This document shows, in pieces, positions 15,623 through 37,522 of a DNA stretch of 39,215 bases (positions are counted from its first letter, which is position 1; each line of letters begins with the position of its first letter). Made by a program: the position numbers and the translations under genes. The notes under the pieces are model-generated. The model had not been told where the DNA came from, made no database searches, and saw only the letters and a program-made list of their open reading frames with translations. Source of the stretch: Acidobacteriota bacterium (GTDB taxonomy: Bacteria > Acidobacteriota > Terriglobia > Terriglobales > Acidobacteriaceae). Where the stretch lies: positions 1 to 39,215 of the forward strand of contig JAZKAG010000101.1 in the NCBI GenBank assembly GCA_040389265.1. The letters run 5' to 3'.

Positions 15623-15632
15623 GTCTCCTGTT

Positions 15633-18464: not shown

Positions 18465-18466
18465 GA

Positions 18467-18709: not shown

Positions 18710-18732
18710 GTCTTTCTCCTAAAACCTTTGTT

Positions 18733-20435: not shown

Positions 20436-21124
20436 TGCAAGCCAAGGAAGCACACCGGATTAATCGTGTTGGCTGGTTGCGCGCCGCTGTGCTGGGCGCA
20501 AATGACGGAATTCTTTCCACCGCCAGCCTGGTGCTGGGCGTGGCGACTTCCCATGCTTCGCACAGCAATGTTGTCGTCGCTGGCGTTGCCGGGCTGGTCG
20601 CAGGCGCCATGTCGATGGCGGCGGGAGAATATGTATCGGTGCATTCTCAGGCCGATACCGAGCGCGCTGAGCTTGATATGGAACGGACGGAGTTGAAGAC
20701 CGACAATAAGGGCGAGCATAAGGAACTGGCAGCGATTTATGTGGAGCGTGGTCTCGACCCAGCGCTGGCGAAGCAAGTTGCGCAGCAGTTGATGGCCCAC
20801 GACGCGCTGGAAGCTCACGCGCGCGATGAGTTGGGGATTACCACAACCAACAAGCCCCGCCCCATTCAGGCTGCACTTGCCTCGGCAGCCAGCTTTGGAA
20901 TCGGCGCAGCCCTGCCGCTTGGGGTTGCCGCCTTAACTCCTGGCTCCATGTTGCTGTACCTGGTGGCTGGCACTTCGCTTATATTCCTTGCCGGACTGGG
21001 GGCGCTGGCCGCTCGAGTTGGCGGCGCCAGAGTCTTGGCCGGCGCGCTTCGAGTCACGTTTTGGGGGGCACTTGCCATGGCCATCACCGCGGGTGTCGGC
21101 GCATTATTCGGAGCCGCTGCCTGA
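20435..21124 (+). CDS. VIT1/CCC1 family Fe/Mn transporter
   Basis: WLRAAVLGANDGILSTASLVLGV, MAAGEYVSV, a central acidic helical region and C-terminal TM helices. Its ATG shares one base with the rmuC TAA (TAATG). Confidence 0.88.
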   Translation: MQAKEAHRINRVGWLRAAVLGANDGILSTASLVLGVATSHASHSNVVVAGVAGLVAGAMSMAAGEYVSVHSQADTERAELDMERTELKTDNKGEHKELAAIYVERGLDPALAKQVAQQLMAHDALEAHARDELGITTTNKPRPIQAALASAASFGIGAALPLGVAALTPGSMLLYLVAGTSLIFLAGLGALAARVGGARVLAGALRVTFWGALAMAITAGVGALFGAAA

Positions 21125-21177
21125 GCGAGTCAAAACTCGAAGCCATTCCGTCGCATCCATCTGTTGAGAGGATTTTC

Positions 21178-22540: not shown

Positions 22541-23938
22541 TCACGAGATGGGTGGCGGAACAAACCCGAACTCGCGATCGACTGCTTCTGCGATCCCAAG
22601 CACGATTTCATCGTCAAATGGGCGGCCTGCGATTTGAACTCCAATCGGCAAGCCTTCCGCCGATTTGCCGACGGGAACCACCGCCGCCGGTGCACCTAAT
22701 GAGTTGAACCATTGGGTATACCGCATCGCATCCAGATAGTGGACCTGCTGTCCTTCAATCATCCAGGACCGTTCGCCATGACGAAACGCAGGCACGGCGC
22801 ACACGGGACAAAGCAAAATAGGAAATGACTGCATCTCCTGCAACATCTGGCCGCGTGCCTGGTCGAGTTCCGCCCATGCCCACAGCAATTCCTCTCCGCC
22901 CAGCGGCGGTTCGCGATGCGCGATGGCGAGAAACTCGAGCAACACCGGACTCAGGCGCTCGTGCCTGCCGTCGACGATGGATTCGACAAACATCGCTCCG
23001 CAGCGCACAAAAAATTTCCACCAGAGTTGCCGCATCGTCTCCAGCGCTTCAGGTCGAAACGGTCGTAACGAAAATCCTTGCTCCTGCAGTGCGCGAACCG
23101 CCGCCCGGACCGCGAATCGCGTCTCCTCTGTCACTGGCACAAGCCCATCATCTTCAAAATAGCCGATTGGAATTTGCTTCAACTCGCTGAGACTCAGCCG
23201 ACGCAGTGCGACCGGCGGGCTGAGCGGATCCGTCGGATCAGGCTCACTCAGCGTCTCAAATAACAAACGGACATCCTGCATGGTGCGAGCCATGGGACCG
23301 AGCGCGCCAAGCACGGAGAAAGGCCCAATGCACGGAGGTTCGTGGCCGCTTGTCGGAATGCGTCCCGGCGTCGGCTTCAAACTGCAAATCCCCGTGAAAT
23401 GAGCCGGCGTGCGCACTGATCCTCCACTGTCGCTGCCAACTCCTCCGGCCGACGTTCCCGATGCAATCGCCGCCGATTCTCCGCCGCTCGAGCCGCCGGA
23501 GCTGTACTCCGGATTCCAAGGGTTGCTCGTCTGACCGTGCAGGCGATTGTCGGTTTCATACGCCATCAGGTATTCCGGGCAATTGGTCGTGCCAAGAATA
23601 TTCGCGCCCGCCTGTCGCACACGGGAAACCACGACGGCATCTTTTTCCGCCCGGGTGCCACGCCGCAGCAGGCTCCCCACTTCGCAATGCAGTCCCGCGA
23701 CCGCAATGGAAGACTTGATGGTCATCGGCAACCCGTACAAAGGTCCACGCAGTCCCGACTTCTCCATCAATGCGCGAGCCTGGGTACGGATGCGCTCGGC
23801 ATCTTGATCATCAAAATTCACAATGGCGTTGAGTTGAGGATTCAGCCGGCGGATTGCCCCGAGATGCTCCTCCGCCAACTCCAGTGGAGAGATTTTATTA
23901 GCGCGAAGCAATGCGATCTGCTCCGTCGCGGACAGCAT
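22541..23938 (-). CDS. Amidase-signature family amidase
   Basis: GGSSGGESAAIASG signature and an N-terminus MLSATEQIALLRANKISPLELAEEH typical of the family. TTG 23953 is an alternative start that would overlap the upstream gene's TGA. Confidence 0.88.
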   Translation of the reverse strand: MLSATEQIALLRANKISPLELAEEHLGAIRRLNPQLNAIVNFDDQDAERIRTQARALMEKSGLRGPLYGLPMTIKSSIAVAGLHCEVGSLLRRGTRAEKDAVVVSRVRQAGANILGTTNCPEYLMAYETDNRLHGQTSNPWNPEYSSGGSSGGESAAIASGTSAGGVGSDSGGSVRTPAHFTGICSLKPTPGRIPTSGHEPPCIGPFSVLGALGPMARTMQDVRLLFETLSEPDPTDPLSPPVALRRLSLSELKQIPIGYFEDDGLVPVTEETRFAVRAAVRALQEQGFSLRPFRPEALETMRQLWWKFFVRCGAMFVESIVDGRHERLSPVLLEFLAIAHREPPLGGEELLWAWAELDQARGQMLQEMQSFPILLCPVCAVPAFRHGERSWMIEGQQVHYLDAMRYTQWFNSLGAPAAVVPVGKSAEGLPIGVQIAGRPFDDEIVLGIAEAVDREFGFVPPPIS

Positions 23939-23949
23939 TGTGACCTGGT

Positions 23950-26900
23950 TCAATTGGCGCCCTGCATACCTTGGTTGTTTACCGCGACAGAAGTCGAAGG
24001 CCTCGGATCGATCGGCGTCGCGTGACTCGGCACATAGTGGAATAGATATTCCTGCGGGCTATCTCCGGAGTTGAAACGATCATTCCACTGCAAGCGATAT
24101 TGCAATGCTGCAGGATCCATGGGATACGCGGTGGGTTTGGAATACGGATATGTCTTCATCCCATGGAACGGCATTTCGTTCACGGTGAAGGGAGAGGCCT
24201 CATAAAAGTCCATGTCCTTCACGTAGCCGTTCGCGTAGAAAAAGTAATCGCGCTTCCATCCCGCCGGTAAAGGCGGCAGCGCGGCCGCACTGAACTCTGC
24301 ATCAATATCTTCGCCACTTCCGAAAATTACGAAGTGGTTGTCAATGGATTTCAGCAGCGGGGTGACATTGCCGTAATGTGTATACGATCCGCGCTCGCGA
24401 GCGAAGGGTCCGGTGGCGCTGATGCGATCGTAGCGATAGGTCAAGTCCCCGGGACTTTGCCGTTCGATCTGTTCCGGATAGCCGCGAAATTCAAGCGTAG
24501 ACAGCGCCAGCGGCAGTTCTGTTCGATGGATTTCCGCAGCGCGATCCGTTCCGTTATCCACCAGGATCTGGTCCCAGTAAATCTGCAGATTGGTCACGAT
24601 GCGCAGCCGCCTCGTCCCAGCCGACAGCTTGCCCGTGAGATCGACAGTGATGGTTCGCGGCAACCCCGCCGGAAATCCCATGTCCGGCAGAATCGTTTTC
24701 CAACTTCCGTTTGACATCTGCGCCTGCAGCACCGGCGGCTCTGGCTTAAGGCCCGCCTGCCACGCCGCATACATTGACGACGCGCTGAAATATTCCACGT
24801 AGCCGTGCAGCAACAACCGCAGTGGATTCTGTGGCGTCCACGCGCCAATATCGAGCGTCAGCGTGTGGGGATTCGCAAACCCTGCATACGATAGGTCGGC
24901 AAAGTCGTGTACATAGCGATGATCGCGGGCGAGCAGCAGAGAACGCACGTCCTCACCATGATTGTTCCAGGCCGCGGCTACCGGTTTGGCAGCGCTGCTA
25001 ACAACTACTTTGTCCGCGGGGAATGGAGGAGCTTCTAGAAAACGCGCATTCGGATACACGTCCGTCCCATCAGGATGATCGATAGCCACGAGTCGCAACT
25101 GGTCGATGAAATTCACTTCTTCCATCGGCTCGCCAAAGCGCAGGCTAAGGTAGCCGTGGTGCGGCTTTAACTCATCTCCAGCGACCTTGATCCATTCTTC
25201 TGGATCGGGAATGTTCCTCGATGTCGGCGATATCCAGTGGCCTACGACGCCTGCACCGATCACATCTGTGATGAATTGATATTGTTTGCCGTTCCAGGCA
25301 AACAACACTGGGCAGGAACTGCCGCGGCGATCAATTTCACTCAGCGGCGTGTATGCATCGGCCGGAACTTTCAACTCATCCTGCAGCACTCCGGTGGGCC
25401 ACAGCATGCGCACAATATCCACGTGGGTTTGATTGCCGAGTCCCGCCAGAATCTCCGGCGAGCCTTGCCCCATGTATCCGGTGGCTCCCGCGACTTCCCA
25501 CTTCTGCCAAAGACTCCCAGAAAAGATTTCTACCTTGGTGCCGAGCGCCGACTTGTTGTCCGCCAATCCTTTGAACGACAGCCGCACCCAGTGATTTTTG
25601 TTGCCACCATCATTGCGCAGCAGCACCGGCGGTCCATCCAATTGCGTCACGACCAGGTCAGCATCGCCGTCGCCATCCATGTCGCCGGCAAGTATGGCGC
25701 GTGGATGATCGAGCTTCAGCTTCGCCAACCCCACATCCGCGGTCACGTCTTGAAATCCTCGCGGACCGCAGTTGCGAAGAATTCGCAGCTCAGCACCCTG
25801 TGCCGTGTCGATCAGCACAGCCAGATCGATCCAGCCGTCATTGTCGATATCGATGGCGGTCAGGCCCCAGCCGCGCGTTGCGTGCAGGTCCGGAAGCGAC
25901 ACCCGCTCGAACCGCTTGCCGTCGACATTGCGCCACAGCGTCACACCGGGCGTACCCGCATGCATAACCGCGACATCCATCCATCCGTCTTTATTAAAGT
26001 CGAAAACGTAGACCCCATTCGTCGGGGGCAGCTTTGCATCGCTATACAAGGAAGTCGCATGAAAGTTGCCCTCCCGCGGATTGGCATAGAAGGTCGGCGA
26101 AGGCTCTGAGCCAGTTACGACAAGATCGACCGCGCGGTCATTATTCAGGTCGGAAAGAGTCGCATTCCGGGTGGCGTCGTGGCCGCCCAGCCCGGTCGCG
26201 GCGGTCACGTTGGTAAAGGTTTGGTTGCCGTTATTCCGCCACAAGACGTTCGCATTGCCCGCCGCCAAGGGCTGGCCTGTGACAAATAGGTCCAGGTCGC
26301 CATCGTGGTCGTAGTCCACAAAGGTAAGGCCGGCAGGTTCGTTTTCCGGGGTAATTCCGACAGCTTTGGTGACCTCAGAGAATTTTCCATGCCCCAGGTT
26401 TCTGAAAAGTACGACGCGGTCGCGCAGCGAAAGCGCGATATCCGGAAGTCCATCGTTATCGAAGTCGCCCACCGTGCAGGCCCGCGCATCGCCGCTCACA
26501 TCCAGTCCCGTGTCGCTGGCCGGTACTTCCCGGAATCGATCGCCCAGGTTGCGATACGCATGCATCGCGTGTGCCCCAGCGCTCAGCGAAATCAGGTCGG
26601 CCTTTCCATCACCGAAAAGATCTACCATGCAGGCGCCGCCACCGGCTTGCTCGGCCTGGGTTGCACTCTTCAACGTGTTCGCTTCGCTGCCAATCGGCTG
26701 TCGCACGAAGCGGATCGGAATCATCGTACCCACCACTGGCTCTGCCACATGGATCGATTGCGCCATGGAGTAGCGGCCCATTTCTCCGTAGGAAATCGTC
26801 ATTGGAGAACCCAGCTTTTCGCTGGTGATGTGCTGAAATCGCTGGAATGCCTGCCTGGCTTTATCCGCCGCTCCCGTCTCCTGATACGCCCGCGCCAATC

Positions 26901-27420
26901 CGAACTCTGCCGATGCATGCAACGGATTCAGTTCGAGCGCGGCCTGATACTGCAGGATGGCATTTTGATATTCCTTATTTTGTTGATACCCGCTGCCCAA
27001 CAAATAGTGAGTGTCCGCATTGTTGGCATCCAGCTCAACCGCATGCTTGAAATCTTCAATCGTTTCTGCCGTGTTGCCGTTTTTACGCGCCACCAATCCC
27101 AGGTTGTACCAGGCCGCTGTGTTCTTCGGATCCTGTTCGATCACCTTGCGCAGCTCTTCGCTCGCCTGCGGCAGTTGTTGAGAATTGAGCAGCGCGATTC
27201 CACGATTCAGGTGAGCCATCAGCAATGTGGGATCCTTCGCGATCGCCGCAGAAAACAGTTGCTCCGCGCGAGCGAAGTTCTGCTGGTTCATGTACGCCAC
27301 ACCCAGATTGTTCAAATGAACGGCGTCCCCTTGCGGGATGGGGGCGGTGTCAGCCCAGGCGAAGGAGAGGAGGAGAAGAGAAACACTAAAGACCAGGGCG
27401 ATCCGGACTCGCGGAAGCAT
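23950..27420 (-). CDS. Secreted multidomain protein: TPR repeats + FG-GAP/VCBS beta-propeller + UnbV/ASPIC domain + ~460-aa unassigned C-terminal region (CRTAC1 family)
   Basis: ATG 27420 gives the signal peptide MLPRVRIALVFSVSLLLLSFAWA. TPR-like helices include NLGVAYMNQQNFARAEQLF and AAWYNLGLVARKNG. Repeated D.DGDG.D / FDNDG.PD loops include GDFDNDGLPDI, DYDHDGDLDL, DIDNDGWIDL and DMDGDGDADL. The UnbV-like segment is NHWVRLSFKG...LGTKVEIFSG...VDIVRMLWPTG. Confidence 0.85.
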   Translation of the reverse strand: MLPRVRIALVFSVSLLLLSFAWADTAPIPQGDAVHLNNLGVAYMNQQNFARAEQLFSAAIAKDPTLLMAHLNRGIALLNSQQLPQASEELRKVIEQDPKNTAAWYNLGLVARKNGNTAETIEDFKHAVELDANNADTHYLLGSGYQQNKEYQNAILQYQAALELNPLHASAEFGLARAYQETGAADKARQAFQRFQHITSEKLGSPMTISYGEMGRYSMAQSIHVAEPVVGTMIPIRFVRQPIGSEANTLKSATQAEQAGGGACMVDLFGDGKADLISLSAGAHAMHAYRNLGDRFREVPASDTGLDVSGDARACTVGDFDNDGLPDIALSLRDRVVLFRNLGHGKFSEVTKAVGITPENEPAGLTFVDYDHDGDLDLFVTGQPLAAGNANVLWRNNGNQTFTNVTAATGLGGHDATRNATLSDLNNDRAVDLVVTGSEPSPTFYANPREGNFHATSLYSDAKLPPTNGVYVFDFNKDGWMDVAVMHAGTPGVTLWRNVDGKRFERVSLPDLHATRGWGLTAIDIDNDGWIDLAVLIDTAQGAELRILRNCGPRGFQDVTADVGLAKLKLDHPRAILAGDMDGDGDADLVVTQLDGPPVLLRNDGGNKNHWVRLSFKGLADNKSALGTKVEIFSGSLWQKWEVAGATGYMGQGSPEILAGLGNQTHVDIVRMLWPTGVLQDELKVPADAYTPLSEIDRRGSSCPVLFAWNGKQYQFITDVIGAGVVGHWISPTSRNIPDPEEWIKVAGDELKPHHGYLSLRFGEPMEEVNFIDQLRLVAIDHPDGTDVYPNARFLEAPPFPADKVVVSSAAKPVAAAWNNHGEDVRSLLLARDHRYVHDFADLSYAGFANPHTLTLDIGAWTPQNPLRLLLHGYVEYFSASSMYAAWQAGLKPEPPVLQAQMSNGSWKTILPDMGFPAGLPRTITVDLTGKLSAGTRRLRIVTNLQIYWDQILVDNGTDRAAEIHRTELPLALSTLEFRGYPEQIERQSPGDLTYRYDRISATGPFARERGSYTHYGNVTPLLKSIDNHFVIFGSGEDIDAEFSAAALPPLPAGWKRDYFFYANGYVKDMDFYEASPFTVNEMPFHGMKTYPYSKPTAYPMDPAALQYRLQWNDRFNSGDSPQEYLFHYVPSHATPIDPRPSTSVAVNNQGMQGAN

Positions 27421-27718
27421 GGAGATAAGGCTGACCTCGGTTCGCTGCGATTGAAACCACCGATCTTTAAGTCTACAAGACACAGATTCGACAGCCGCAT
27501 CGCGCAACGGTCGTTTTGATATCTATTGACAGGAGAAAATGTACACGCACACTTTTGCAGCCCTGCCGATGAAATTCGTGCATGATTAACGAATTGAACT
27601 CGCCCGCCGTAGTTCGTAACGTGGCATGAGGGAGCCATCGAATTCTCGCCCGTTTAAAAGATGAATTTCACGAGCTGACTTTGTTTAATTTGCAGCGGGA
27701 CGACGCTAACATTTTTGC

Positions 27719-29647
27719 ATGACGATTCCCGTTCCGAGGCCGGCGCTTTGCTCCCATCCAGCCCACTCAATCGGGTACAATCCATCGCAGTGGGGAGTAT
27801 TCTTGCGGCGTCGTTGGCTGTTTCCGTACGTTTTGATTTCGTTTGTGACCGTGGTTGCGTTACCTCGATCGGCACATGCAGCCCCTCCGCCGCAGAGTGG
27901 CATGGCGAGCGGTCCACCCTCCAAAGCCGTGTACGATGCGCAGCATCGCCCCATCACCGCGGGTGGTTTCGTTAAGTCCGGTCCAATTGTTTTTATGGAT
28001 GTTGCCGAGAAGGCTGGGCTGACCACCTGGCATCACACCGCCGGCACACCCGAAAAGAAATACATTCTTGAAGCCAAGGGTCCCGGCGTTTGCCTGCTCG
28101 ATTACGATAACGACGGCTGGCTCGACATCTATCTCGTAAACGGTTCCACCTATGCCGCCCTTGACGGCAAAGCCGCTGCGCCACAGGCGGCGCTTTTCCA
28201 TAACAACCACGATGGAACCTTCACCAGCGTGACCGCGAAAGCAGGCGTAGGCAACGGTCGCTGGGGCTTCGGCTGCACCGTCGGAGATTTTGACAATGAT
28301 GGCTGGCCCGATCTGTACGTCACCAACTACGGACAGAACCGCCTCTACCGCAACAACCATGACGGCACCTTCACCGATGTTGCCGCAAAGGCGGCCGTGA
28401 CCGTTGGTACCTGGTCCACCGGTGCGACGTTCGGCGACTACGACGGCGACGGCAAGCTCGATCTTTTTGTCGATGGATATCTTCACTACGACTACAAAAA
28501 TCCGCCGGTCTCCGGGTCGAAAGCGGTCGACTACAAAACCTGCGCCTTCCGCGGAACTCCCGTGATGTGCGGCCCCGCGGGTCTTCCTGGGGAGCAAGAT
28601 CATCTCTTCCACAACAATGGCGATGGCACTTTCACCGATGTCAGCAAGCAACTCGGAGTCAGCGATCCGTCCGGATATTACGGGCTGGGAACCTTGTTCG
28701 CTGATGTGAATAACGATGGCAAGCCGGATCTTCTGGTCGCCAACGACACCACGCCGAATTACCTCTACATGAACAAGGGTAACGGTACATTTTCCGACGA
28801 AAGTCTGGAAAGCGGTTACGCGCTGAATGCCGACGGCCGCGAAGTTGCAAACATGGGCATTGCCGCCGGCGACTACGAAAACAATGGGCACCTGGATATC
28901 GTCAACACCGACTTCGGCGATGACTACGATGTGGTCTTCCGCAACGACGGCACCGGATATTTTACCGACGTCAGTTACGAAACTGGGATTGCCGCGCCCA
29001 CGATTCCTTTTGTCGGTTTCGCCGATGGTTTTCTCGATTACGACAACGATGGCTGGAAAGATCTATTGATCGTCAACGGCCATGTTTATCCCAGCGTCGA
29101 TCAACATCCGGATTGGGGGACCAGTTACGCCGAACGCTCGTTGCTGTTTCACAATCTGAAGAATGGCAAGTTCGACCTCGTCCCCGCGGTGGAGGGAACT
29201 GGGCTCGCAGTCGTCAGCGTCGGCCGCGGAGCCGCATTTGGCGACCTCTTCAACGATGGCAAAATCGACGTCATCATCAACAACATGGATGGCGTACCGG
29301 TGCTATTGCGCAACGTCAATCCCGACCATCACCACTGGGTTGAGCTGAAGTTGATCGGCGGAGCGAAGAGTCCCCGCGACGCGGTCGGCGCGACCGTCTA
29401 CCTGAATGCTGATGGCATGCGCCAGCGCGGCGATGTGCTCAGCGGAGGCAGCTATCTCTCTTCCAACGACATGCGTGTTCACTTTGGTGTCGGCGCCGCC
29501 GCCACCATCAACAGCGTTGAAATCCATTGGCCCAGCGGGGCTAAGGAGACACTCAAGCTGGGCGCCGTCGATCGTATCTATACCATCACGGAAGGCAAAG
29601 GCATTACCGCCGCAATGTGCGATGGCAAGGCGTGCCCAGCCCAATAA
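27719..29647 (+). CDS. CRTAC1 family protein (FG-GAP/VCBS repeats + UnbV/ASPIC), secreted
   Basis: Motifs LDYDNDGWLDIYLVNG, GDFDNDGWPDLYVTNYGQNRLYRNN.DGTFTDV (recurring) and HHWVELKLIG...AVGATVYLNADG...SGGSYLSSNDMRVHFGVG...VEIHWPSG. The true start may be TTG 27803, which has SD GGGGAG and gives MRRRWLFPYVLISFVTVVALPRSAHA. Confidence 0.88.
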   Translation: MTIPVPRPALCSHPAHSIGYNPSQWGVFLRRRWLFPYVLISFVTVVALPRSAHAAPPPQSGMASGPPSKAVYDAQHRPITAGGFVKSGPIVFMDVAEKAGLTTWHHTAGTPEKKYILEAKGPGVCLLDYDNDGWLDIYLVNGSTYAALDGKAAAPQAALFHNNHDGTFTSVTAKAGVGNGRWGFGCTVGDFDNDGWPDLYVTNYGQNRLYRNNHDGTFTDVAAKAAVTVGTWSTGATFGDYDGDGKLDLFVDGYLHYDYKNPPVSGSKAVDYKTCAFRGTPVMCGPAGLPGEQDHLFHNNGDGTFTDVSKQLGVSDPSGYYGLGTLFADVNNDGKPDLLVANDTTPNYLYMNKGNGTFSDESLESGYALNADGREVANMGIAAGDYENNGHLDIVNTDFGDDYDVVFRNDGTGYFTDVSYETGIAAPTIPFVGFADGFLDYDNDGWKDLLIVNGHVYPSVDQHPDWGTSYAERSLLFHNLKNGKFDLVPAVEGTGLAVVSVGRGAAFGDLFNDGKIDVIINNMDGVPVLLRNVNPDHHHWVELKLIGGAKSPRDAVGATVYLNADGMRQRGDVLSGGSYLSSNDMRVHFGVGAAATINSVEIHWPSGAKETLKLGAVDRIYTITEGKGITAAMCDGKACPAQ

Positions 29648-29662
29648 GTCGAAGGAATAATC

Positions 29663-30895
29663 TTGTTGGTATCATGGGTTGTCATGCCTGCAAAAAGACG
29701 GATTGCCGCATTTTTACTGGCCTTTCTCACGACGTCTCCGGCTTTTTCTCAGGCAGTTTCTTCCCATGCCGCGCCCAGTCGCCAGGCCCAGATAAAACAG
29801 CATTCTCAGTTGGCGCAGCAGCATCTTGCGGAGCGTCGACCTGATCTGGCGATCCCTGAATTGAAAGCCGTTGTTGCACTCGACCCCAAAAATCTGGATG
29901 CACGCGCCAACCTTGGAGTGCTTCTTTTCTTTCGCGAACAGTATGCCGACGCGGCTCCTCAGCTCCGCGCAGCGTTAAAGCTTCAGCCGGATTTGTGGAA
30001 GATCCAGGCCCTGCTCGGTATGTCGGAACTCCGGCTCGGTCAACCGACCGAAGGACGGCATGATTTAGAGACTTCGTTTCCTCATCTGGAGGACGAAAAA
30101 ATCAAGATGCAAGTCGGCCATGCGCTGATCGATAGCTACACTTCCACCGGCGATCTTGCCCCGGCCGCAACCGTCGTTTCCGCGCTGCTCAAGTTGGAAC
30201 CCACCGACACAGGTCTGCTTTACACTGCCTTCCGGCTATATTCCGATTTGACGGACGAAGCCATTTTGACGATGGCCATGACCGCGCCCGACAGTGCGCA
30301 CATGCATCAGATGATGGCACGTGTGCTGGTGCGCGAAGGTGACTCGGCTGCGGCCATCAAGAATTACCGCGAAGCGATTCGCATCAATCCGAAAATTGCC
30401 GCGTTGCATTTTGAGCTGGCCCAGTTGCTGTGGGCGACGGATACAGTGGATGCCCAGAAGGAGGCTGTTGCAGAATACAAAACCGCATTGGAATTGAATC
30501 CTCTGGACGAGAAGGCTGAGTCTGAGCTGGGTCGAATCGCAGCGCAGAATGGCGACACCAAAGAAGCTTTTGCGGACTATTCAAAAGCCGTGCAGATGCA
30601 GCCGGACGATGCCGTAGCACTCACCGGACTCGCCGGTGTTCTCATCTCACAGCAGCAACAAGCGAAGGCGCTGCCGCTGCTGGAGCGCGCCGTGCAATTG
30701 GATCCGACCAGCGCTTCCGCTCATTTTCGCCTCAGCACCTTATATCGGAATGCGGGTCGAACCGACGACGCCAAGCGGGAACTTGCCGAATACCTGAAAT
30801 ACAAGAAGATGCAATCCGACCTCAGCGCTATCTTCAAACAGATGCGTTTGCCTCCAGCGAAAGATCAGACGGGAGACGCCGATGCCCCCAGATAA
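29663..30895 (+). CDS. Secreted tetratricopeptide (TPR) repeat protein
   Basis: Signal-like sequence AKRRIAAFLLAFLTTSPAFSQA. Multiple TPR units are present (ELKAVVALDPKNLDARANLGVLL, EAIRINPKIAALHFELAQLL, KAVQMQPDDAVALTGLAGVL, RAVQLDPTSASAHFRLSTLY). TTG 29663 has AAGGA upstream; ATG 29684 is an alternative. Confidence 0.85.
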   Translation: MLVSWVVMPAKRRIAAFLLAFLTTSPAFSQAVSSHAAPSRQAQIKQHSQLAQQHLAERRPDLAIPELKAVVALDPKNLDARANLGVLLFFREQYADAAPQLRAALKLQPDLWKIQALLGMSELRLGQPTEGRHDLETSFPHLEDEKIKMQVGHALIDSYTSTGDLAPAATVVSALLKLEPTDTGLLYTAFRLYSDLTDEAILTMAMTAPDSAHMHQMMARVLVREGDSAAAIKNYREAIRINPKIAALHFELAQLLWATDTVDAQKEAVAEYKTALELNPLDEKAESELGRIAAQNGDTKEAFADYSKAVQMQPDDAVALTGLAGVLISQQQQAKALPLLERAVQLDPTSASAHFRLSTLYRNAGRTDDAKRELAEYLKYKKMQSDLSAIFKQMRLPPAKDQTGDADAPR

Positions 30896-30934
30896 TTCGG
30901 TAGGTGCGTCTACCCATCATGCTGCGGATTCAGC

Positions 30935-32710
30935 ATGGCGCGCTTGAGATTGCATAACACCGCGGCCTTGCTTCTGCTGATGTTGGCTGCTGGCGTTGTA
31001 GCGGCATGGGGCCAAAACGCAACCGCGCACGCATCGACGGCGCCCCCGCTAATGGCGACCACACCAGTTCCAGCCGCGTCCGCACTGCCGCAACTTGTCG
31101 ACATTACCAAATCCACCGGGATCAATTTCAGCCATCTCTCCAGTCCTGAAGCAAAATATGTCGTCGAGTCGATGAGTGGTGGCGTCGCCCTGATTGATTA
31201 CAACCGCGACGGGTGGCCGGACATTTATTTCACCAACGCGCCCAGTGTGGAGATGGCGCTGGCCGGCAAAAAGGCCCGTAGCGCGCTCTATCGCAACAAT
31301 AAAGATGGCACATTTACTGATGTCAGCGACTCGGCCGGAGTCGCCACTCCGTGCTGGGCCATGGGCGCATCCGTCGGCGACTACAACAAGGATGGCTGGC
31401 CTGATTTGCTGGTGACCTGCTTCGGTGGCGTGGTGCTCTACCGTAACAATGGCAATGGAACATTCAGCGACGTCACCAAACAGGCCGGTCTTGGCAACGA
31501 TACGCTGTGGGCCACAGGCGCGGCCTTCGGCGACTATGACAAGGATGGCCGGGCCGATTTGTTCGTCGACCACTATGTGGATTTGAACCTGAACGATCTG
31601 CCCACCTTCGGCTCTCGCCCCACATGCAAATATCACGCCATCGACGTGCAGTGCGGGCCGCGAGGATTGAAAGGTTCGCCCGACAATCTTTACCACAACA
31701 ACGGCGACGGCACGTTCACCGACGTCTCCAGCCAAGCCGGCGTTAACGATGCGCAAGGACTGTATGGGCTGACCGCCGTTTGGCATGACTTCAACGCGGA
31801 CGGTCGCCTCGATCTGTTTGTCGACAATGACGGGGAACCCAACTATCTCTATCGCAACGACGGCAACGGCCATTTCACCGACATTGCTTACAGCGCAGGC
31901 GTGGCTGTCGATCAGGACGGCAATGCCCAGGCCAACATGGGCACCGCGCTCGGCGATTACAATCACACCGGTCGTTTTTCTATCGCAATCACGCATTTCA
32001 ACGAGCAGTACACGGCGCTATTCCGCAACGATGGAAACATGAACTTCACCGACATCTCCTATGCTTCCGGAATCGCGCAGAGTACCACCACCTATGTCGG
32101 GTGGGGCGACGAATTTATCGACCTCGATAACGATGGCTGGGACGATTTCTTCATGGTGAACGGCCACGTGTATCCGCAGGTGGACAGCATCGGCATGGAT
32201 TCCAAATTTCGCGAGCCCAAATTGCTGTTTCAAAATATGCACGATGGGAAATTCCAGGACGTCAGCAAGCAGGTAGGGCCGGCGATTCGGGAACTGCAGG
32301 TCAGCCGCGGAACCGCCATGGGCGATCTGTTCAACGATGGCAAAGTCGATCTGGTCATCGAGAATCTCGAGGGCGCTCCGATGATTCTTGCGCCACAAGG
32401 TGGTCCGCCAAACCACTGGATCAGCCTCCAGCTGGAAGGGACAAAAAGCAATCGTCTCGCCTTGAATGCCCGCGTGACCGCGACTGCAGGCGACCTGGTG
32501 CAGACCAAGGAAGTGCTCAGCGGTGGCAGCTACTTATCGCAGAATGATTTGAGGATTCATTTTGGTCTGGGTGGCCATACTCATGCCGACAAAGTCGAAA
32601 TACTTTGGCCCGACGGAAGCAAGCAGACGTTTACCAACGTGACCGCCAACCGTTTTTATCAGTTGACGGAAGGAAAAGACCTCGCACCGGTCACCTATAC
32701 CCATCCATGA
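30935..32710 (+). CDS. CRTAC1 family protein (FG-GAP/VCBS repeats + UnbV/ASPIC), secreted
   Basis: Signal peptide MARLRLHNTAALLLLMLAAGVVAAWG. Motifs include IDYNRDGWPDIYFTN, GDYNKDGWPDLLVT, LYRNNGNGTFSDVT and NHWISLQLEG...ALNARVTATAG...SGGSYLSQNDLRIHFGLG...VEILWPDG. Confidence 0.9.
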   Translation: MARLRLHNTAALLLLMLAAGVVAAWGQNATAHASTAPPLMATTPVPAASALPQLVDITKSTGINFSHLSSPEAKYVVESMSGGVALIDYNRDGWPDIYFTNAPSVEMALAGKKARSALYRNNKDGTFTDVSDSAGVATPCWAMGASVGDYNKDGWPDLLVTCFGGVVLYRNNGNGTFSDVTKQAGLGNDTLWATGAAFGDYDKDGRADLFVDHYVDLNLNDLPTFGSRPTCKYHAIDVQCGPRGLKGSPDNLYHNNGDGTFTDVSSQAGVNDAQGLYGLTAVWHDFNADGRLDLFVDNDGEPNYLYRNDGNGHFTDIAYSAGVAVDQDGNAQANMGTALGDYNHTGRFSIAITHFNEQYTALFRNDGNMNFTDISYASGIAQSTTTYVGWGDEFIDLDNDGWDDFFMVNGHVYPQVDSIGMDSKFREPKLLFQNMHDGKFQDVSKQVGPAIRELQVSRGTAMGDLFNDGKVDLVIENLEGAPMILAPQGGPPNHWISLQLEGTKSNRLALNARVTATAGDLVQTKEVLSGGSYLSQNDLRIHFGLGGHTHADKVEILWPDGSKQTFTNVTANRFYQLTEGKDLAPVTYTHP

Positions 32711-32878: not shown

Positions 32879-35824
32879 CTAACGGGTTTGAATCGAATAG
32901 AGCGAGCTATGCGTCAGGATGAATAGCGTCTTTCCGTCTTTGCCGCCAAAGATCAGGTCGATGGGACGCTCGGGAACATCGATGGTTCCAATTTGTTTGC
33001 CGCTGGAGTCATAGATAAAGATGTTGCCTGCCGCCAGGTACACATTTCCCTTGCTGTCCTGGATCACACTTTCACCGCCCTCTTCTGTAAACAGCTTCAG
33101 GCTGGAAAGCGTGCCATCCGGGTTGATGCTTCCGGAGTAGGTTTTCTGCTCGGACTCTTCGCTGACATAGAAGGGGCGTCCCGGAACGACTTTTGCCAGG
33201 CTGAACGCGCGCAGAACATCGGACATTTTCACGCCCCACATCATCGTTCCATCGATAAAATCCTTTCCCGCGGGAATAAACGTAGTCCCATCCGGGGAAA
33301 TAAACTGGTAGGGTCGCGGCCTCGTTACCTGCTGTACGAAATCGTGGCTGCCCCAGTAATCGACGGGAAGAACCGCTGTCATTCCCGGGCGCGGAGCTAC
33401 CGCTACCGGCTGGATGAAAGTAATTCGATCATCGAGCGCGTCAGGCCGGAAGGTATACACCGTGCCCTTACCGGCATAGGAAACCACAATTAGATTTCCT
33501 GCGCGATCCATTGCCAGCTGAGTCGGTTGCAGGGAATTGTCACGGAGAATCTTCAGGTCGTGCATTTCCGGCGTCCAGCGATAAATCCTCCGCCAACGTG
33601 TGTCGATGAAATAAAGCCGTCCTTGCGCGTCGACAGTTGCGCCTGAGATCGTAAAGAATCCACCGCACAATTTCTCCAGCTTCGCGCCTTCAGCGAGTAC
33701 CGGCGCGGGTGCAACCGGCCGCGGCTCAGGTTTCTTTCCAGAAATCGAAAGTGACGCCAGCTCGCTAGAGCGAACCTGCACGCCATACGTCTGATCGAAG
33801 ACCGAGTTATCGAATGCAACTTTGCTGTTGCTGTTCACATGCAGATTCTTCAACTGAATATCGCTGGACCGCGCAACACGCACCGCATAGGGAAAGGGTT
33901 GATAGCTGGCGATCACGCGATACGAGTGGAAGTTGGCGACCGTAATATGGCTGGAGTCGTCGATTTCAAGTGGCAGCGCGAAGGGACCCTCCCCCCACTC
34001 TTCTTCCGTCTGCAGAGAATCAATCTCCCAGTTGGAAACATGTCGCAGCACAATTTCGTTGCGCACGTGATGCTCGCTGGAAAGCTCATACACATGCCCC
34101 GGAGTCGACGTGTTGGAGATGTACATGCCCGCCTGCGCGTACGTGTCCGGCGTCCAAATGTCGGCGAATGTCCCACCGCCACCATTCGTGATCCACAGGC
34201 TGGGATATTGCGCATCCCATTGGCGATGAATGTCCGGGTCAGCAGTATGGGTGTTGTTGTAGGGATTGACGCGCGTTCCATCGATGCGATTGGTGCCATG
34301 GCCGCCCAGAAATCGAACGTCATCCATCAATGAATTTTCCCCGGCCATCCACATCACACCTGCAGCACGGCTGTTGATGCCATTGGTGTAGATGCCAATA
34401 CCGGTCACGATATTGGTTCCACCTTGAGGAGTCTCCAACAGAGGCTTCGGATTTCCAACGCCCTGAAATCCCGCGGTGGAGTCCGGCAGGATCAACTGTG
34501 TCGCACTGGGATGCAGCCCGATCAGGACAGTGTCTGGCTTCAGCCGCAATGTATCGCTGACGATATAGTGCCCCGAAGGAATATAAATCGTGGCATGCTC
34601 GTCGATCGCCCGCTGAATTGCGGCGGTATCGTCGGCCGTTCCGTCGCCCTTCGCACCCAGGGTATGCAGGTTCACCCACGTGTCACGCGGGGGAAGATTG
34701 CGAATCACTGGCGCCCCCGCAGGCGGCAACGCGGTTAGTGGCGCCGTCTGGAACGAGGTTTCAATCTTTGCCGGTGCATCCAAATCGGCGATGGTCAGCC
34801 CATGGGAAAATACCTGGACTCGGTACATCGCTGCAGGCCCAGCAAGCTTTTTTCCAGTCTCGCGAAACTCCGCGAACTGCGGCACATGCTTGCAAATGAT
34901 TTCCTTCAGGTTGATTTCCGTCCGCGGATTGTTCTCGTTGCTGACGATCACCGCTGGACCGCTGATATCCTCGAATCGAGAATTCTTTACCCATAGCTCA
35001 TCGGGATACTCAGGATCGATTGCAATTGCCGTCGGCACATTCCGGAACACATCGTGATCGAGCGTCAAACCGGCTTCATGCTCCTGGATTGCAGCCACAG
35101 TCTGGCCTTCAAACGTGGAATCCAGCAGCGTGAATTGCCACCCGGGGGAAGGCCTCTCGGTGATGATTCCGTACTGGCCCCCGTAAAAATGTAAATCTTC
35201 GGCCTCGTTGCCAATGTCCTTCAGCGCCGCCAGCCCCGAGCCAAGATGAAAATCCATGTGGGTCAGAAAACAATGCTGCGCCACGTGAAAGCGAATTCCA
35301 ACAGCAGCCGGATTGCCATCCTGAATTTCAAAGTCGATGTTGCTCATCGCGGAGTAAAACGTTCCCGGATTGGCATCCTCCACTTCCGTTGCCGGCACTG
35401 TCCCCGGGAAAGGGCCAGTGTGACGGTACGGATGCCTGCCGCCTGCGAACATCACCATGTACCCGATGCCCTTCTGAAAGCCGGGAGTATTTTTCCCCAG
35501 CAACAGCACCGGTCGCGTTGGCCCATAGCCAATGACGCGCACCGCCGGCCAAACAAAAATGGTTTTGCTGATTCGATATCGGCCGGAAGGAATAAAGACG
35601 ATGCCTTGTTTGCGCGTTGCCTCGACCTGGTCAATGGCTTGTTGAATTGCCATGCTGTCGTCGGCGACACCATCCCCATGAACAGGAAATTTGTCTGGCG
35701 TCAGGTACACCGCCGTCGGATCATCCAGGCGAACAGGGTAGTAGGAGGCAGCCAACGATGGCGCCGCGAACAGCGATGCCAGGATCAACAACACAGCAGA
35801 CTGAATCGATCCAACCTTCATCAA
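32879..35824 (-). CDS. Secreted GH55-like tandem beta-helix (two pectate-lyase-3-type modules) fused to a C-terminal SMP-30/gluconolactonase/LRE-like beta-propeller
   Basis: SD GGGAGG and signal peptide MMKVGSIQSAVLLILASLFAAPSLA. Module 1: HGDGVADDSMAIQQAIDQ...IVFIPSGRYRISKTI and GIRFHVAQHCFLTHMDF. Module 2: LGAKGDGTADDTAAIQRAIDEHATIYIPSGHYIVSDTL. The last ~270 aa (32882..33691) read ...SGATVDAQGRLYFIDTRWRRIYRW...DRAGNLIVV...NVYLAAGNIFIYDSSGKQIGTIDVPERPIDLIFGGKDGKTLFI, which is SGL-like. Confidence 0.75.
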   Translation of the reverse strand: MMKVGSIQSAVLLILASLFAAPSLAASYYPVRLDDPTAVYLTPDKFPVHGDGVADDSMAIQQAIDQVEATRKQGIVFIPSGRYRISKTIFVWPAVRVIGYGPTRPVLLLGKNTPGFQKGIGYMVMFAGGRHPYRHTGPFPGTVPATEVEDANPGTFYSAMSNIDFEIQDGNPAAVGIRFHVAQHCFLTHMDFHLGSGLAALKDIGNEAEDLHFYGGQYGIITERPSPGWQFTLLDSTFEGQTVAAIQEHEAGLTLDHDVFRNVPTAIAIDPEYPDELWVKNSRFEDISGPAVIVSNENNPRTEINLKEIICKHVPQFAEFRETGKKLAGPAAMYRVQVFSHGLTIADLDAPAKIETSFQTAPLTALPPAGAPVIRNLPPRDTWVNLHTLGAKGDGTADDTAAIQRAIDEHATIYIPSGHYIVSDTLRLKPDTVLIGLHPSATQLILPDSTAGFQGVGNPKPLLETPQGGTNIVTGIGIYTNGINSRAAGVMWMAGENSLMDDVRFLGGHGTNRIDGTRVNPYNNTHTADPDIHRQWDAQYPSLWITNGGGGTFADIWTPDTYAQAGMYISNTSTPGHVYELSSEHHVRNEIVLRHVSNWEIDSLQTEEEWGEGPFALPLEIDDSSHITVANFHSYRVIASYQPFPYAVRVARSSDIQLKNLHVNSNSKVAFDNSVFDQTYGVQVRSSELASLSISGKKPEPRPVAPAPVLAEGAKLEKLCGGFFTISGATVDAQGRLYFIDTRWRRIYRWTPEMHDLKILRDNSLQPTQLAMDRAGNLIVVSYAGKGTVYTFRPDALDDRITFIQPVAVAPRPGMTAVLPVDYWGSHDFVQQVTRPRPYQFISPDGTTFIPAGKDFIDGTMMWGVKMSDVLRAFSLAKVVPGRPFYVSEESEQKTYSGSINPDGTLSSLKLFTEEGGESVIQDSKGNVYLAAGNIFIYDSSGKQIGTIDVPERPIDLIFGGKDGKTLFILTHSSLYSIQTR

Positions 35825-35871
35825 CTTCCTCCCACAACCGTTGCATGCGCTCTTACGAATCGCCCGGCAGT

Positions 35872-37278: not shown

Positions 37279-37467
37279 TAGAGCCTCCCATTCCCGCCCG
37301 CTGGGCAGTATGAATTGTAGTGTGACGATTTACGAAACCCTTGCGGTGTTGTAATCACTCTTCAACTCGCGCGATGAGTCGCAGGGATTTGCAACCTTGC
37401 CGCGAGAACCTCCGCATCCTGCGCGTCACAATCCAGACGCGCAACGCCCCATACAGCATCGCTGCAA

Positions 37468-37499
37468 GTGAAAAGGACGGCGACATTCACCGTCCTTTC
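37468..37499 (-). terminator. Rho-independent terminator downstream of the TBDR gene
   Basis: The minus-strand RNA GGAAAGGACGG-UGAAUGUCG-CCGUCCUUUUCAC forms a 9-bp stem followed by a U-run. It begins ~25 nt after the stop at 37523-37525. Confidence 0.65.
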
Positions 37500-37522
37500 C
37501 AAGGTTGAGGATTGCTCCCAAC

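Follow-up and report, generated by a model that had tools for sequence, protein, structure and literature searches.

A conserved module of exported TPR and CRTAC1-type propeller proteins in an acidobacterial locus, with a possible link to TonB-dependent glycan uptake

What role could four adjacent genes play whose products all carry export signals and are built around TPR and CRTAC1-type (FG-GAP/VCBS plus UnbV) modules? The genes lie in a 39,215-nt stretch of contig JAZKAG010000101.1 from an Acidobacteriota bacterium; this whole stretch is referred to here as the window. A sequence-only reading had described them as a divergent cluster, and all four open reading frames were confirmed, with minor start corrections for two of them. 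On the minus strand lies a gene for a multidomain protein, here called the long form (ORF 23950..27507), and its probable ATG at 27420 (gene 23950..27420) yields 1,156 aa, identical to a product in the protein collection (P0121). On the plus strand follow a short CRTAC1-type gene, CRT-A (27719..29647; 642 aa from its ATG), a stand-alone TPR gene (29663..30895; 410 aa) and a second short CRTAC1-type gene, CRT-B (30935..32710; 591 aa). For CRT-A, the TTG at 27803 (614 aa, as in the relative L021) appears more likely as the start than the ATG, and for the TPR protein the ATG at 29684 (403 aa) is the more likely start. Promoters presumably lie in the intergenic region (27421..27802) from which the long form and CRT-A diverge; a simple scan detected no sigma-70-like site there. 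The claimed operon-like gaps on the plus strand were reproduced (15 nt between CRT-A and TPR, 39 nt between TPR and CRT-B), and a sequence scan of both revealed no terminator-like site.

The signal peptides proposed for all four proteins were likewise recognized, by eye, at the N-termini (MLPRVRIALVFSVSLLLLSFAWA, RRRWLFPYVLISFVTVVALPRSAHA, MPAKRRIAAFLLAFLTTSPAFSQA, MARLRLHNTAALLLLMLAAGVVAAWG). These signals are plain Sec-type, that of the stand-alone TPR protein included, and none has a lipobox, which gives no support to a surface exposure of the SusD/SGBP kind. By contrast, the amidase whose gene ends the long-form operon (22541..23953, minus strand; 470 aa; Pfam Amidase, E 2e-94) shows no export signal at its N-terminus; there is a 4-nt overlap between its start and the stop codon of the long form. 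The description of the cluster as consisting only of TPR and CRTAC1 modules was therefore too strong: the modules are present, but so are this translationally coupled amidase and a large extra domain in the long form.

The long form begins with a TPR domain (26821..27333; aa ~30-200; ten helices; Pfam TPR_1, TPR_2 and TPR_16), whose helices were modeled by AF2 with high confidence (H30-H200, pLDDT >90). A linker (26656..26820; aa ~201-255) leads to a seven-blade-type FG-GAP/VCBS propeller with UnbV_ASPIC (25354..26655; aa ~256-689), for which Pfam reported FG-GAP_3 in six stretches (E 2e-42) and UnbV_ASPIC (E 1e-12). The top Foldseek match was murine CRTAC1 (9etn; E 2e-19, TMt 0.67, 505 columns), and the next-best structural matches to the propeller were the fungal GlcNAc lectins 4tqj and 5mb4 (TMt 0.53-0.54). 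In the full-length AF2 model (pTM 0.61) the packing of TPR against propeller has no confidence. Since the linker is conserved, with invariant (Y211, G212, G215 and M233) and near-invariant columns in a 99-sequence alignment (A2), its sequence suggests that it fixes the TPR-propeller geometry and is not floppy.

The remaining C-terminal domain (23953..25323, minus strand like the rest of the gene; about 430-457 aa, all-beta) had been flagged as an unknown region, and Pfam gave no match for its ~457 aa even at E<=10. Modeled alone, it consists mainly of strands (AF2, pLDDT 84.9, pTM 0.88). Foldseek returned no match to the whole domain (TMq <=0.23), and its sub-domains weakly resemble galactose-binding-like jelly rolls (APC10, CBM6/16, discoidin; E about 1e-2). 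The domain was found in 3,533 cluster representatives, nearly always at the C-terminus of proteins of 1,100-1,200 aa, and family length stays constant (1,130-1,220 aa) even at 54% identity. The combination of TPR, propeller, UnbV and C-terminal domain is an old, populous family. Additionally, the long-form propeller shares 32% identity with CRT-B, and its TPR domain shares 25% with the stand-alone TPR protein over ~130 aa, a generic likeness only. The Rosetta-stone argument drawn earlier is thus valid at the level of domain families only; the long form is not a fusion of its neighbors.

The short proteins belong to the same propeller class. CRT-A and CRT-B are 48% identical, and Pfam assigned FG-GAP_3 and UnbV to both (E 1e-55 and 1e-18 for CRT-A; 5e-44 and 6e-23 for CRT-B); the stand-alone TPR protein matches many TPR families (E about 1e-29). 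Both CRTs also match PDB 9etn by sequence (E 1e-13 and 2e-20, respectively). Conservation across 83 short CRTAC1 proteins is confined almost entirely to Ca-loop and structural FG-GAP motifs, and no catalytic set stands out; no glycan-binding residues were identified. Lipoprotein signals occur on both CRT and TPR proteins in Rhodothermales and Marinicella, which fits anchoring in the outer membrane.

In a CRTAC1-centered survey that spanned about 12 phylum-level groups and 79 genome loci, a TPR-only gene immediately adjoined the CRTAC1 gene in 46 loci (58%, against an expectation of about 2%), and 13 loci carried TPR-CRTAC1 fusions. The background rate of TPR genes, taken from genes more than three genes away, was 4/346 (1.2%). 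Of the same-strand TPR/CRTAC1 gaps, 27 of 51 measured 0 nt or less; overlaps of 1-4 nt are frequent and suggest that the paired genes are coupled in translation. Adjacency and fusion recur in Acidobacteriota, Acidimicrobiia, Rhodothermales, Gammaproteobacteria, Poribacteria, Verrucomicrobiota, Gemmatimonadota, Latescibacterota and Bacteroidota; loci of Flavobacteriales contain further TPR proteins that phmmer overlooked. Adjacency is hence conserved well beyond close relatives, and the central claim of the sequence-only reading, that the two module types work together outside the cytoplasm, is supported by this recurrence. These comparisons support TPR and CRTAC1-type modules as putative functional partners in that compartment. 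We found neither literature on such a partnership nor experimental support for it; the pairing of exported TPR proteins with Ca-type CRTAC1-like propellers is nonetheless widespread.

Further genes in the window point to a possible context. Convergent with CRT-B, a minus-strand operon (32879-39215) opens with a TonB-dependent receptor (TBDR)-type outer-membrane barrel (37523..39215; Pfam OMP_b-brl_4, E 5e-133; N-terminus cut by the window end). It continues with a GH30 glycoside hydrolase (35872..37278; 468 aa; Pfam Glyco_hydro_30, E 4e-50) and a GH55-like double beta-helix protein with a C-terminal SGL propeller (32879..35824; 981 aa). The top PDB match of GH30 is 5ngk (E 2e-85), which we take to be the Bacteroides BT3312 endo-beta-1,6-glucanase. 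The GH55-like protein matches Pect-lyase_RHGA_epim (E 1e-38) and SGL in Pfam, and the beta-1,3-glucanases 5m5z and 3eqn in the PDB (E about 1e-10). The barrel is most similar to TBDRs that directly precede TPR-CRT pairs in L006-L009 (E 1e-110 to 1e-170), and its L006 orthologue combines CarboxypepD_reg with OMP_b-brl_4.

The same genes surround orthologues of the module. Orthologues of the stand-alone TPR protein (43-92% identity) have a TBDR ahead of them and a CRTAC1 gene behind them. Among the CRT-B orthologues (64-74% identity), those in L007-L009 occupy the third position of TBDR-TPR-CRT cassettes, those in L031 and L032 lie immediately upstream of TBDR-TPR, and that in L006 closes an operon of the order TBDR-TPR-GH55-like-GH30-CRT, an arrangement shared by L094. 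CRT-A orthologues are confined to the closest relatives. A TPR-centered survey covered 31 orthologue loci, 25 of them assessable for a downstream CRTAC1 gene, which was present in 17. A TBDR was located immediately upstream in 12 of the 31 and elsewhere within the locus in six more; GH30 occurred in eight and GH55-like genes in three. CRTAC1, TBDR, GH30 and GH55-like genes were all absent from 15 control loci chosen by generic TPR similarity. In the CRTAC1-centered survey, a TBDR lay within three genes of CRTAC1 in 27/79 loci (25/44 in Acidobacteriota; background 5/346). The TPR/CRT-B pair is orthologous to the second and third genes of TBDR-TPR-CRTAC1 operons. With the amidase coupled to the long form on the other side, the picture of a closed four-gene system does not hold. 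The closest relatives sharing the CRT-A-TPR-CRT-B layout (L001, L002, L021, L085-87) lack TBDR-GH30-GH55-like genes in the flank, which indicates that the linkage to a transporter is not obligatory.

The four genes make up one local example of a conserved envelope module, in which TPR proteins and CRTAC1-type proteins are both exported and a long form joins the two and adds a C-terminal domain rich in jelly rolls. As our leading but tentative explanation, to which we give a little less than an even chance, we propose TPR-docked, lectin-like envelope propellers that assist the TonB-dependent uptake of a glycan, probably a beta-glucan. All four proteins would be exported by Sec, possibly Tat, to the periplasm or the outer-membrane zone, where docking adaptors in contact with the propellers could be provided by the stand-alone TPR protein and by the long form's TPR arm. 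The propellers, and likewise the CBM-like C-terminal domain, would be lectin-like binding modules, and together they may capture substrate or hand it over to a TonB-dependent outer-membrane transporter. Binding is preferred over catalysis because of the lectin matches, the Ca-loop and structural character of the conserved columns, and the CBM-like sub-domains. Since orthologous operons and the adjoining operon hold GH30 (beta-1,6-glucanase-like) and GH55-like (beta-1,3-glucanase-like) genes, a fungal-type beta-glucan is the likely substrate as far as gene content can tell. Nutrient capture is most likely, rather than a free-standing matrix system, because in soil Acidobacteria the module usually adjoins TonB-dependent importers and glycan-cutting enzymes.

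Other partners suggest other readings, and the long form travels with the amidase, multihaem-TPR proteins and a nucleotide-sugar trio, which weighs against a transporter-accessory role. The trio (Polysacc_synt_2, the UDP-GlcNAc 2-epimerase Epimerase_2 and a DegT aminotransferase) lies between the long form and CRT-A in L002 and L085-87 and adjoins the long form in L080-L082; the L081 long form is embedded in an EPS-type locus with Poly_export and Bac_transf. Together with the lectin-like structural neighbors and the missing TBDR flank in the closest relatives, this would suit a free-standing secreted scaffold with the cell's own surface polysaccharide, glycoconjugate or matrix as its ligand and with no uptake role, much as the sequence-only reading had proposed. 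However, the trio is missing from the window, L001 and L021 and could be an unrelated neighboring operon, whereas orthologues of TPR and CRT-B reside overwhelmingly in TBDR/GH loci. The scaffold thus stands as one of several readings, with some support from the trio but less than the TonB-dependent uptake link has, and we consider it unlikely. Still somewhat less probable is a periplasmic redox or enzymatic pathway, in which the propeller would be a substrate-binding or catalytic subunit alongside c-type multihaem cytochromes, the product would be imported and finished by the cytoplasmic amidase, and the window's version would have lost its haem partner. In L038-40, L042, L050, L060, L070, L082, L083 and L084, the gene immediately upstream of a short CRT encodes a multihaem-TPR protein (about 940-1,010 aa) that has five CXXCH motifs, a TM segment and TPR at its C-terminus, and 7-haem cytochromes occur in the TBDR-TPR-CRT loci L011-13, L016, L022, L093 and L109. 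Such a pathway would also accommodate the FGE-sulfatase-like gene between TPR and CRT in Poribacteria, the RRxFLQ Tat-like signals on some CRTs, and a CRTAC1-family gene reported to sit between hydrazine-synthase-like subunit homologues (PMC12758564). The amidase, too, is coupled to the long form in seven lineages (a long form or CRT overlaps it by 1-4 nt also in L001, L021, L080, L082, L083 and L084), but it is a cytoplasmic enzyme and its gene may be a passenger; the window has no haem protein, and conserved catalytic residues are absent from the 83 short CRTs.

The recurring triad of barrel, TPR and propeller, and the PD40+TPR proteins downstream of TBDRs in L028, L030, L045 and L048, would also be expected of a helper in outer-membrane biogenesis or maintenance that serves large CarboxypepD_reg-type barrels by analogy with BamB/BamD or TolB/CpoB. 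We judge this improbable: no homology to these four proteins exceeds family cut-offs, many CRT/TPR pairs in the 79-locus survey have no barrel gene, and paralogue expansion with variable partners better fits substrate-specific roles. Chance clustering of two abundant paralogous families with no functional link is barely credible. TPR and FG-GAP/UnbV genes are indeed numerous in Acidobacteria, and ASPIC/UnbV is listed among the expanded paralogues of Solibacter (PMC3174227), but the excess of adjacency over expectation, its conservation, with stop and start codons that overlap, across about nine phylum-level groups, the 13 independent fusion-bearing loci and the negative control (0/15 with a CRTAC1 neighbor) effectively refute it in both surveys.

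The preferred reading, uptake-linked propellers, can be set against known systems. Vertebrate CRTAC1 (ASPIC; 9etn) is likewise secreted and has an FG-GAP Ca-loop propeller followed by UnbV_ASPIC; it acts in the extracellular matrix and as a Nogo-receptor antagonist. The bacterial proteins, at about 19% identity, lack its EGF-like domain, their genes accompany TPR, TBDR, cytochrome and amidase partners, and the long form is extended by a TPR at its N-terminus and by the C-terminal domain. The vertebrate function is no direct guide to the bacterial role. The fungal integrin-like propeller lectins AAL2 (4tqj) and PAL (5mb4), which bind terminal GlcNAc according to their PDB entry titles, share the seven-blade FG-GAP-type propeller; at 18% identity, however, they have no UnbV domain, and nothing indicates that their sugar-binding pockets are conserved here. 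BamD/BamB and CpoB/TolB also pair an exported TPR protein with an exported beta-propeller at an outer-membrane barrel or the envelope, but the propeller class differs and there is no sequence-family membership; NCBIfam TPR equivalogs matched the module proteins only far below cut-off. Further, the arrangement recalls the polysaccharide utilization loci of Bacteroidota (SusC-type TBDT, SusD, surface glycan-binding proteins and CAZymes), in that genes for an all-helical TPR-type and a beta-rich binding-type protein come after that for a TBDR with an N-terminal CarboxypepD_reg domain, GH genes are found next to them, and the partners in Rhodothermales are lipoproteins. Unlike those loci, the system described here has no homologue of SusD/RagB, the signals of the acidobacterial TPR and CRT proteins are of the Sec type and not lipoprotein signals, and the TPR/CRT pair is also found in loci that have no TBDR.

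The cluster comprises four genes, and the coordinates and strands in the ORF list are identical to those of the sequence-only reading (23950-32710): the long form on the minus strand (ORF 23950..27507) and, on the plus strand, CRT-A (27719..29647), the stand-alone TPR gene (29663..30895, 410 aa) and CRT-B (30935..32710). Pfam profile annotation also bore out the domain content assigned to them. Six FG-GAP_3 stretches each were found in the long form, CRT-A and CRT-B (144-186 bits against a cut-off of 26.9), with UnbV_ASPIC following the propeller in all three (48-81 bits, cut-off 23.4). TPR_1, TPR_2, TPR_11 and TPR_16 scored far over the cut-off in the long form and in the stand-alone TPR protein, which carries TPR families only. 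The long form most likely starts at ATG 27420, giving 1,156 aa, and exactly this product is present in the protein collection (P0121). CRT-A probably starts at TTG 27803 (614 aa, matching the relative at locus L021), and the TPR gene probably at ATG 29684. Export signals, as had been claimed, are visible by eye at all four N-termini. The reported gaps of 15 and 39 nt between the plus-strand genes agree with the ORF list, and neither contained a terminator-like site in our scan; the sigma-70 and terminator scan of the intergenic regions revealed nothing useful. The order CRT-A, TPR, CRT-B is kept in ten related loci from other genomes and metagenomes (L001, L002, L004, L005, L021, L024 and L085-88). 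With one strand, short gaps, a terminator-free interior and a conserved order, these three genes form a predicted operon.

By sequence, the three CRTAC1-type proteins match the solved CRTAC1 structure 9etn (E 8e-09, 1e-13 and 2e-20). A full-length AF2 model of the long form (99 sequences; pLDDT 75.6, pTM 0.61) contains a TPR arm (helices H30-H200, pLDDT >90) and a propeller that are each confident, with no confidence in their mutual arrangement. The best structural match of this model (Foldseek) is the same murine CRTAC1, 9etn (E 2e-19, TMt 0.67, 505 columns); after it come, for the propeller, AAL2 and PAL, which are fungal GlcNAc lectins, and then integrin alpha. The linker between TPR arm and propeller (aa ~201-255) contains invariant residues, which suggests that the arm may be held at a fixed geometry to the propeller. 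Across 83 aligned short CRTAC1 proteins, nearly all columns with at least 85% conservation belong to DxDxDG-type Ca loops or to the L..N.G.G.F repeat core, and no obvious catalytic constellation is present. This pattern speaks for binding or scaffolding rather than for a conserved enzyme; we set the enzyme aside on the absence of invariant catalytic-type residues, which is weak evidence. A Cys-containing insertion between blades (TC...CGP.GL.G) is common to the short proteins (CRT-B aa 229-250, about 31619-31684, with an equivalent in CRT-A) and missing from the long form. NCBIfam returned no match for CRT-A or CRT-B; for the TPR parts it gave only sub-threshold generic TPR equivalogs (PrsT, MamA, PilW), and no curated family was assigned.

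The C-terminal region of the long form, which had been described as unknown, indeed comprises ~457 aa without any Pfam match, even at E<=10. Modeled alone (AF2, 81 sequences), this C-terminal domain (CTD; 23953-25323, minus strand; ~430 aa) is nearly all beta, with a pLDDT of 84.9 and a pTM of 0.88. Foldseek found no whole-domain relative in the PDB (TMq <=0.23). Sub-domain matches at E ~1e-2 repeatedly fell on galactose-binding-like jelly rolls, namely APC10/Doc1, CBM6, CBM16, discoidin and the ephrin ligand-binding domain. The model thereby hints at carbohydrate- or ligand-binding modules, with no CBM assignment.

The sequence-only reading had taken the long form, lying next to split TPR and CRTAC1 genes, as a Rosetta-stone fusion. 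CRT-A and CRT-B share 48% identity, the long-form propeller and CRT-B 32%, and the TPR arm shares 25% with the stand-alone TPR protein over ~130 residues, a similarity generic to TPR repeats. Judged by these identities, the three CRTAC1 modules are old paralogues. With the N-terminal 700 aa of the long form as query, 7,545 of the 8,000 candidates that were scored matched at E<=1e-10; the best 120 matches are nearly all 1,130-1,220 aa long and carry TPR, FG-GAP_3 and UnbV, at identities as low as 54%. The CTD alone retrieved 3,533 cluster representatives (50% identity), of which 1,299 scored E<=1e-30, so that homologues of the module number in the thousands. In nearly every case the CTD occupies residues ~700-1,160 of a protein in this same size class; two copies were found in a few proteins of 2,200-2,550 aa. 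The four-part architecture is shared by Acidimicrobiia, Latescibacterota, Kangiella and further classes of Acidobacteria (L040, L041, L056, L059-61, L070). The long form therefore appears ancient and fixed rather than a local fusion of its neighbors, and the low identities, together with a constant-length old family, led us to reject a recent local gene fusion or fission. The long form also differs from the adjoining split genes by its extra domain, and the fusion claim thus holds only at the level of domain families. There it is still informative, since a long form, a TPR-bearing protein and a short CRTAC1 adjoin each other in many lineages (L038-40, L060, L061, L070, L082-84). The cluster is solidly real; its Rosetta-stone framing is weaker than first appeared.

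We then surveyed gene neighborhoods at 79 genome loci coding for CRT-B relatives (27-91% identity) from Acidobacteriota, Acidimicrobiia, Poribacteria, Rhodothermales, Bacteroidota, Planctomycetota, Gammaproteobacteria, Gemmatimonadota, Chloroflexota, Verrucomicrobiota, Latescibacterota and Ignavibacteria, labeling ORFs by phmmer/hmmsearch with the window proteins as queries. A TPR-only gene directly adjoins a CRTAC1-type gene in 46 of the 79 loci, 13 loci contain a TPR+CRTAC1 fusion, and 54 have either a fusion or a TPR gene at most two genes away. Among 346 genes lying more than three genes from any CRTAC1 gene, only four code for TPR proteins. Pfam additionally found TPR proteins of ~1,040-1,060 aa in two Flavobacteriales loci that the phmmer screen had overlooked. 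The association extends over nine phylum-level groups; the adjacency is therefore not confined to close relatives, an outcome by which the sequence-only reading would have been refuted. At 27 of 51 same-strand TPR/CRT junctions the gap is 0 nt or less, mostly through overlaps of 1 or 4 nt, the pattern expected of translationally coupled partners.

Three genes convergent with CRT-B adjoin the cluster on the right. The first encodes a GH55-like double beta-helix with a C-terminal SGL propeller (32879..35824; PDB beta-1,3-glucanases 5m5z and 3eqn, E ~1e-10) and the second a GH30 enzyme (35872..37278), whose best PDB match is 5ngk (E 2e-85), which we take to be the Bacteroides BT3312 endo-beta-1,6-glucanase. 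Look-ups of the exact CRT-B and GH30 sequences, intended to carry the locus beyond the window, returned no record. The third encodes a barrel of the TonB-dependent receptor (TBDR) type, cut by the window end (37523..39215; OMP_b-brl_4, E 5e-133). A second receptor of the CarboxypepD_reg + OMP_b-brl_4 type is cut by the left window edge (1-2919, minus strand), its downstream genes falling outside the window. CRT-B orthologues with 64-74% identity were placed as follows. In L007-L009 they come third in a cassette, behind TBDR and TPR (397-400 aa); in L006 the orthologue closes a TBDR-TPR-GH55-like-GH30-CRT operon, and in L031 and L032 it lies directly upstream of TBDR-TPR. The TPR protein of L006-L009 is the orthologue of the window TPR protein, and the window TBDR is closest to the TBDRs of these loci (E 1e-110 to 1e-170, vs. 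1e-15 to 1e-48 for other TBDRs). All five components, TBDR, TPR, GH55-like, GH30 and CRT, form a single operon in L006 and L094, and GH30 lies beside TBDR-TPR-CRT in L007, L008, L090, L104 and L109. In total, 27 of the 79 loci, and 25 of the 44 from Acidobacteriota, have a TBDR no more than three genes away from a CRTAC1 gene (background 5/346).

In order to avoid selection on CRTAC1, metagenome contigs were also scanned with the TPR protein as the center and annotated in the same way. A TPR orthologue (43-96% identity) was present at 31 loci; CRTAC1 follows it directly downstream in 16 of the 25 that could be assessed and later in the operon in one more. A TBDR lies directly upstream in 12 of the 31 and elsewhere in the locus in six more; GH30 was found in eight and a GH55-like gene in three. 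None of these four partners occurred in 15 control loci with generic TPR proteins (24-35% identity). Both sets of counts place the window TPR/CRT-B pair in a TBDR-centered locus type rich in GH30 and GH55-like genes, and the window appears to hold this gene set divided into two convergent predicted operons. TBDR, CAZymes and exported accessory proteins are thus clustered across lineages, as in a TonB-dependent nutrient locus in the broad sense.

We tentatively propose that the envelope TPR-docked CRTAC1 module is an accessory device for substrate capture or hand-over at TonB-dependent transporters, a possibility that we rate a little short of evenly balanced. TPR proteins would dock Ca-stabilized, lectin-like CRTAC1 propellers in the envelope, the long form would add its CBM-like CTD, and the complex would capture substrate or hand it over to the transporter, which in the window is probably the adjacent beta-glucan-type TBDR-GH30-GH55-like system. 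The data show the homology and fold, the conserved adjacency, fusion and coupling of the genes, and their association with TBDR and GH genes; physical contact between TPR protein and propeller, the ligand and the location are what we infer.

Chance clustering of TPR and CRTAC1 genes is hardly credible and was rejected on the 79-locus counts against background and on the TPR-centered control. The sequence-only reading had envisaged a surface-glycan or matrix scaffold, which we consider unlikely. It draws on a trio of nucleotide-sugar genes (Polysacc_synt_2, UDP-GlcNAc 2-epimerase and DegT aminotransferase) that lies between long form and CRT-A in L002 (3344-6433) and L085-87 and flanks the long form in the more distant L080-82; the trio is absent from the 382-nt long-form/CRT-A intergenic region of the window and from L001 and L021. 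The closest relatives do not have the TBDR-GH30-GH55-like flank. In the closest of them, L001, the right flank (11801-21773) has instead genes for gluconate-2-DH subunit 3, a GMC oxidoreductase, two Peripla_BP_6 proteins, a DAHP-synthase/NeuB-like protein, two beta-propeller proteins and another CRTAC1.

A haem-linked periplasmic pathway with the amidase as its final step would account for a different set of partners. An amidase-signature enzyme (22541..23953, minus strand) overlaps the long-form stop codon by 4 nt, and an amidase is the last gene after a long form or short CRTAC1, with 1-4 nt overlap, in L001, L021, L080, L082, L083 and L084 as well; this predicted coupling is conserved in seven Acidobacteriaceae lineages. 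The window enzyme is cytoplasmic and has no export signal, and its assignment as GatA was rejected, the best NCBIfam matches being generic amidases below cut-off. In Acidimicrobiia and several Acidobacteria, a membrane-anchored protein of ~940-1,010 aa with five CXXCH motifs, a C-terminal TPR and weak Cytochrome_C554/MtrC-like Pfam matches lies directly upstream of the short CRTAC1, often overlapping it (L038-L040, L042, L050, L060, L070 and L082-L084; e.g., L083:11504-14317). Four-CXXCH versions occur in Rhodothermales (L049, L053). Seven-haem c-type cytochromes of ~400-430 aa were found within or beside TBDR-TPR-CRT loci, either divergent from the TBDR (L011-L013, L016, L022) or after the CRT gene (L093:6869-8140, L109:8135-9394), which is unexpected for a glycan-uptake locus. 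We nevertheless hold this pathway to be quite improbable, and more so a role of the pair as a BamB/BamD-like helper of outer-membrane barrels, for which we see very little likelihood.

Other features of the relatives vary. Poribacteria carry an FGE-sulfatase-like (SUMF1-like) gene between TPR and CRT (L035:4993-5964, L055:10670-11566), and both partners carry lipoprotein signals in Rhodothermales and Marinicella. The N-terminus of CRT-A (27803-) bears RRRWLF, and twin-arginine motifs of the type RRxFLQ open the short CRTAC1 genes L012:450-2210, L017:1275-2984, L028:9956-11752 and L045:9956-11743; such motifs may mean that Tat exports these proteins folded or with a cofactor. The multihaem, sulfatase and nucleotide-sugar partners and the Tat-like and lipoprotein signals complicate a single-function account. 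PD40 (TolB-like) + TPR proteins of ~820-840 aa are encoded downstream of the TBDR in L028, L030, L045 and L048 (e.g., L045:1475-3997), divergent from a TPR (570-640 aa)-CRTAC1 pair. In the left part of the window, VIT1 and a PLD-type enzyme (19023-22518, plus strand) are kept beside the amidase/long-form operon in L001 and L021, and RmuC lies farther left; a functional link of the three to the cluster is not apparent. A 586-aa protein (13862-15622, plus strand) gave two weak matches, one to a collagen triple-helix repeat that stays below cut-off (E 1.5e-5) and one PQQ_2/BamB-like.

By Pfam, PDB sequence and fold, the long form, CRT-A and CRT-B are members of the CRTAC1/ASPIC-UnbV family in its bacterial sense. 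Vertebrate CRTAC1 carries a C-terminal EGF-like Ca-binding domain, whereas Pfam scans of the three proteins returned no EGF family. A full-text literature search found no study of a bacterial TPR-CRTAC1 system and only passing mentions: ASPIC/UnbV is an expanded paralogue family in Solibacter (PMC3174227) and an abundant repeat protein in Poribacteria (PMC3909097), and a CRTAC1-family gene lies between hydrazine-synthase-like homologues (PMC12758564). The right flank of L001 recalls the HZS-like/CRTAC1/ABC-binding-protein cluster of the last study.

Pfam detected no SusD/RagB in any scanned neighbor, and the TBDRs are of the CarboxypepD_reg + OMP_b-brl_4 type; the locus is therefore not a Bacteroidota polysaccharide utilization locus (PUL). 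Acidobacteriota, which rank with the most abundant bacteria of soils, possess many large CarboxypepD_reg-type TonB-dependent receptors but, to our knowledge, encode no SusD. A conserved TPR + CRTAC1 pair right behind the receptors and beside beta-glucanase genes is a concrete candidate for the missing function in polymer capture at the outer membrane. The pair would also offer a first functional approach to the bacterial relatives of vertebrate CRTAC1, and to a large domain without a Pfam model. In its widest form, the proposal would make TPR-CRTAC1 pairs and the long form phylum-spanning, unrecognized TonB-transporter accessory binding complexes that do in Acidobacteriota and other non-Bacteroidota what SusD and surface glycan-binding proteins do in Bacteroidota, serve again together with multihaem cytochromes in further envelope processes, and carry in the CTD a new carbohydrate-binding family. 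We regard this wider claim as doubtful. In its logic the locus does resemble a Bacteroidota PUL, combining a SusC-like CarboxypepD_reg barrel, a helical repeat protein, a beta-rich binder and CAZymes. The window cluster thus belongs to a module that is conserved and widely distributed, and its putative setting is a TonB-dependent nutrient locus with a non-SusD accessory pair.
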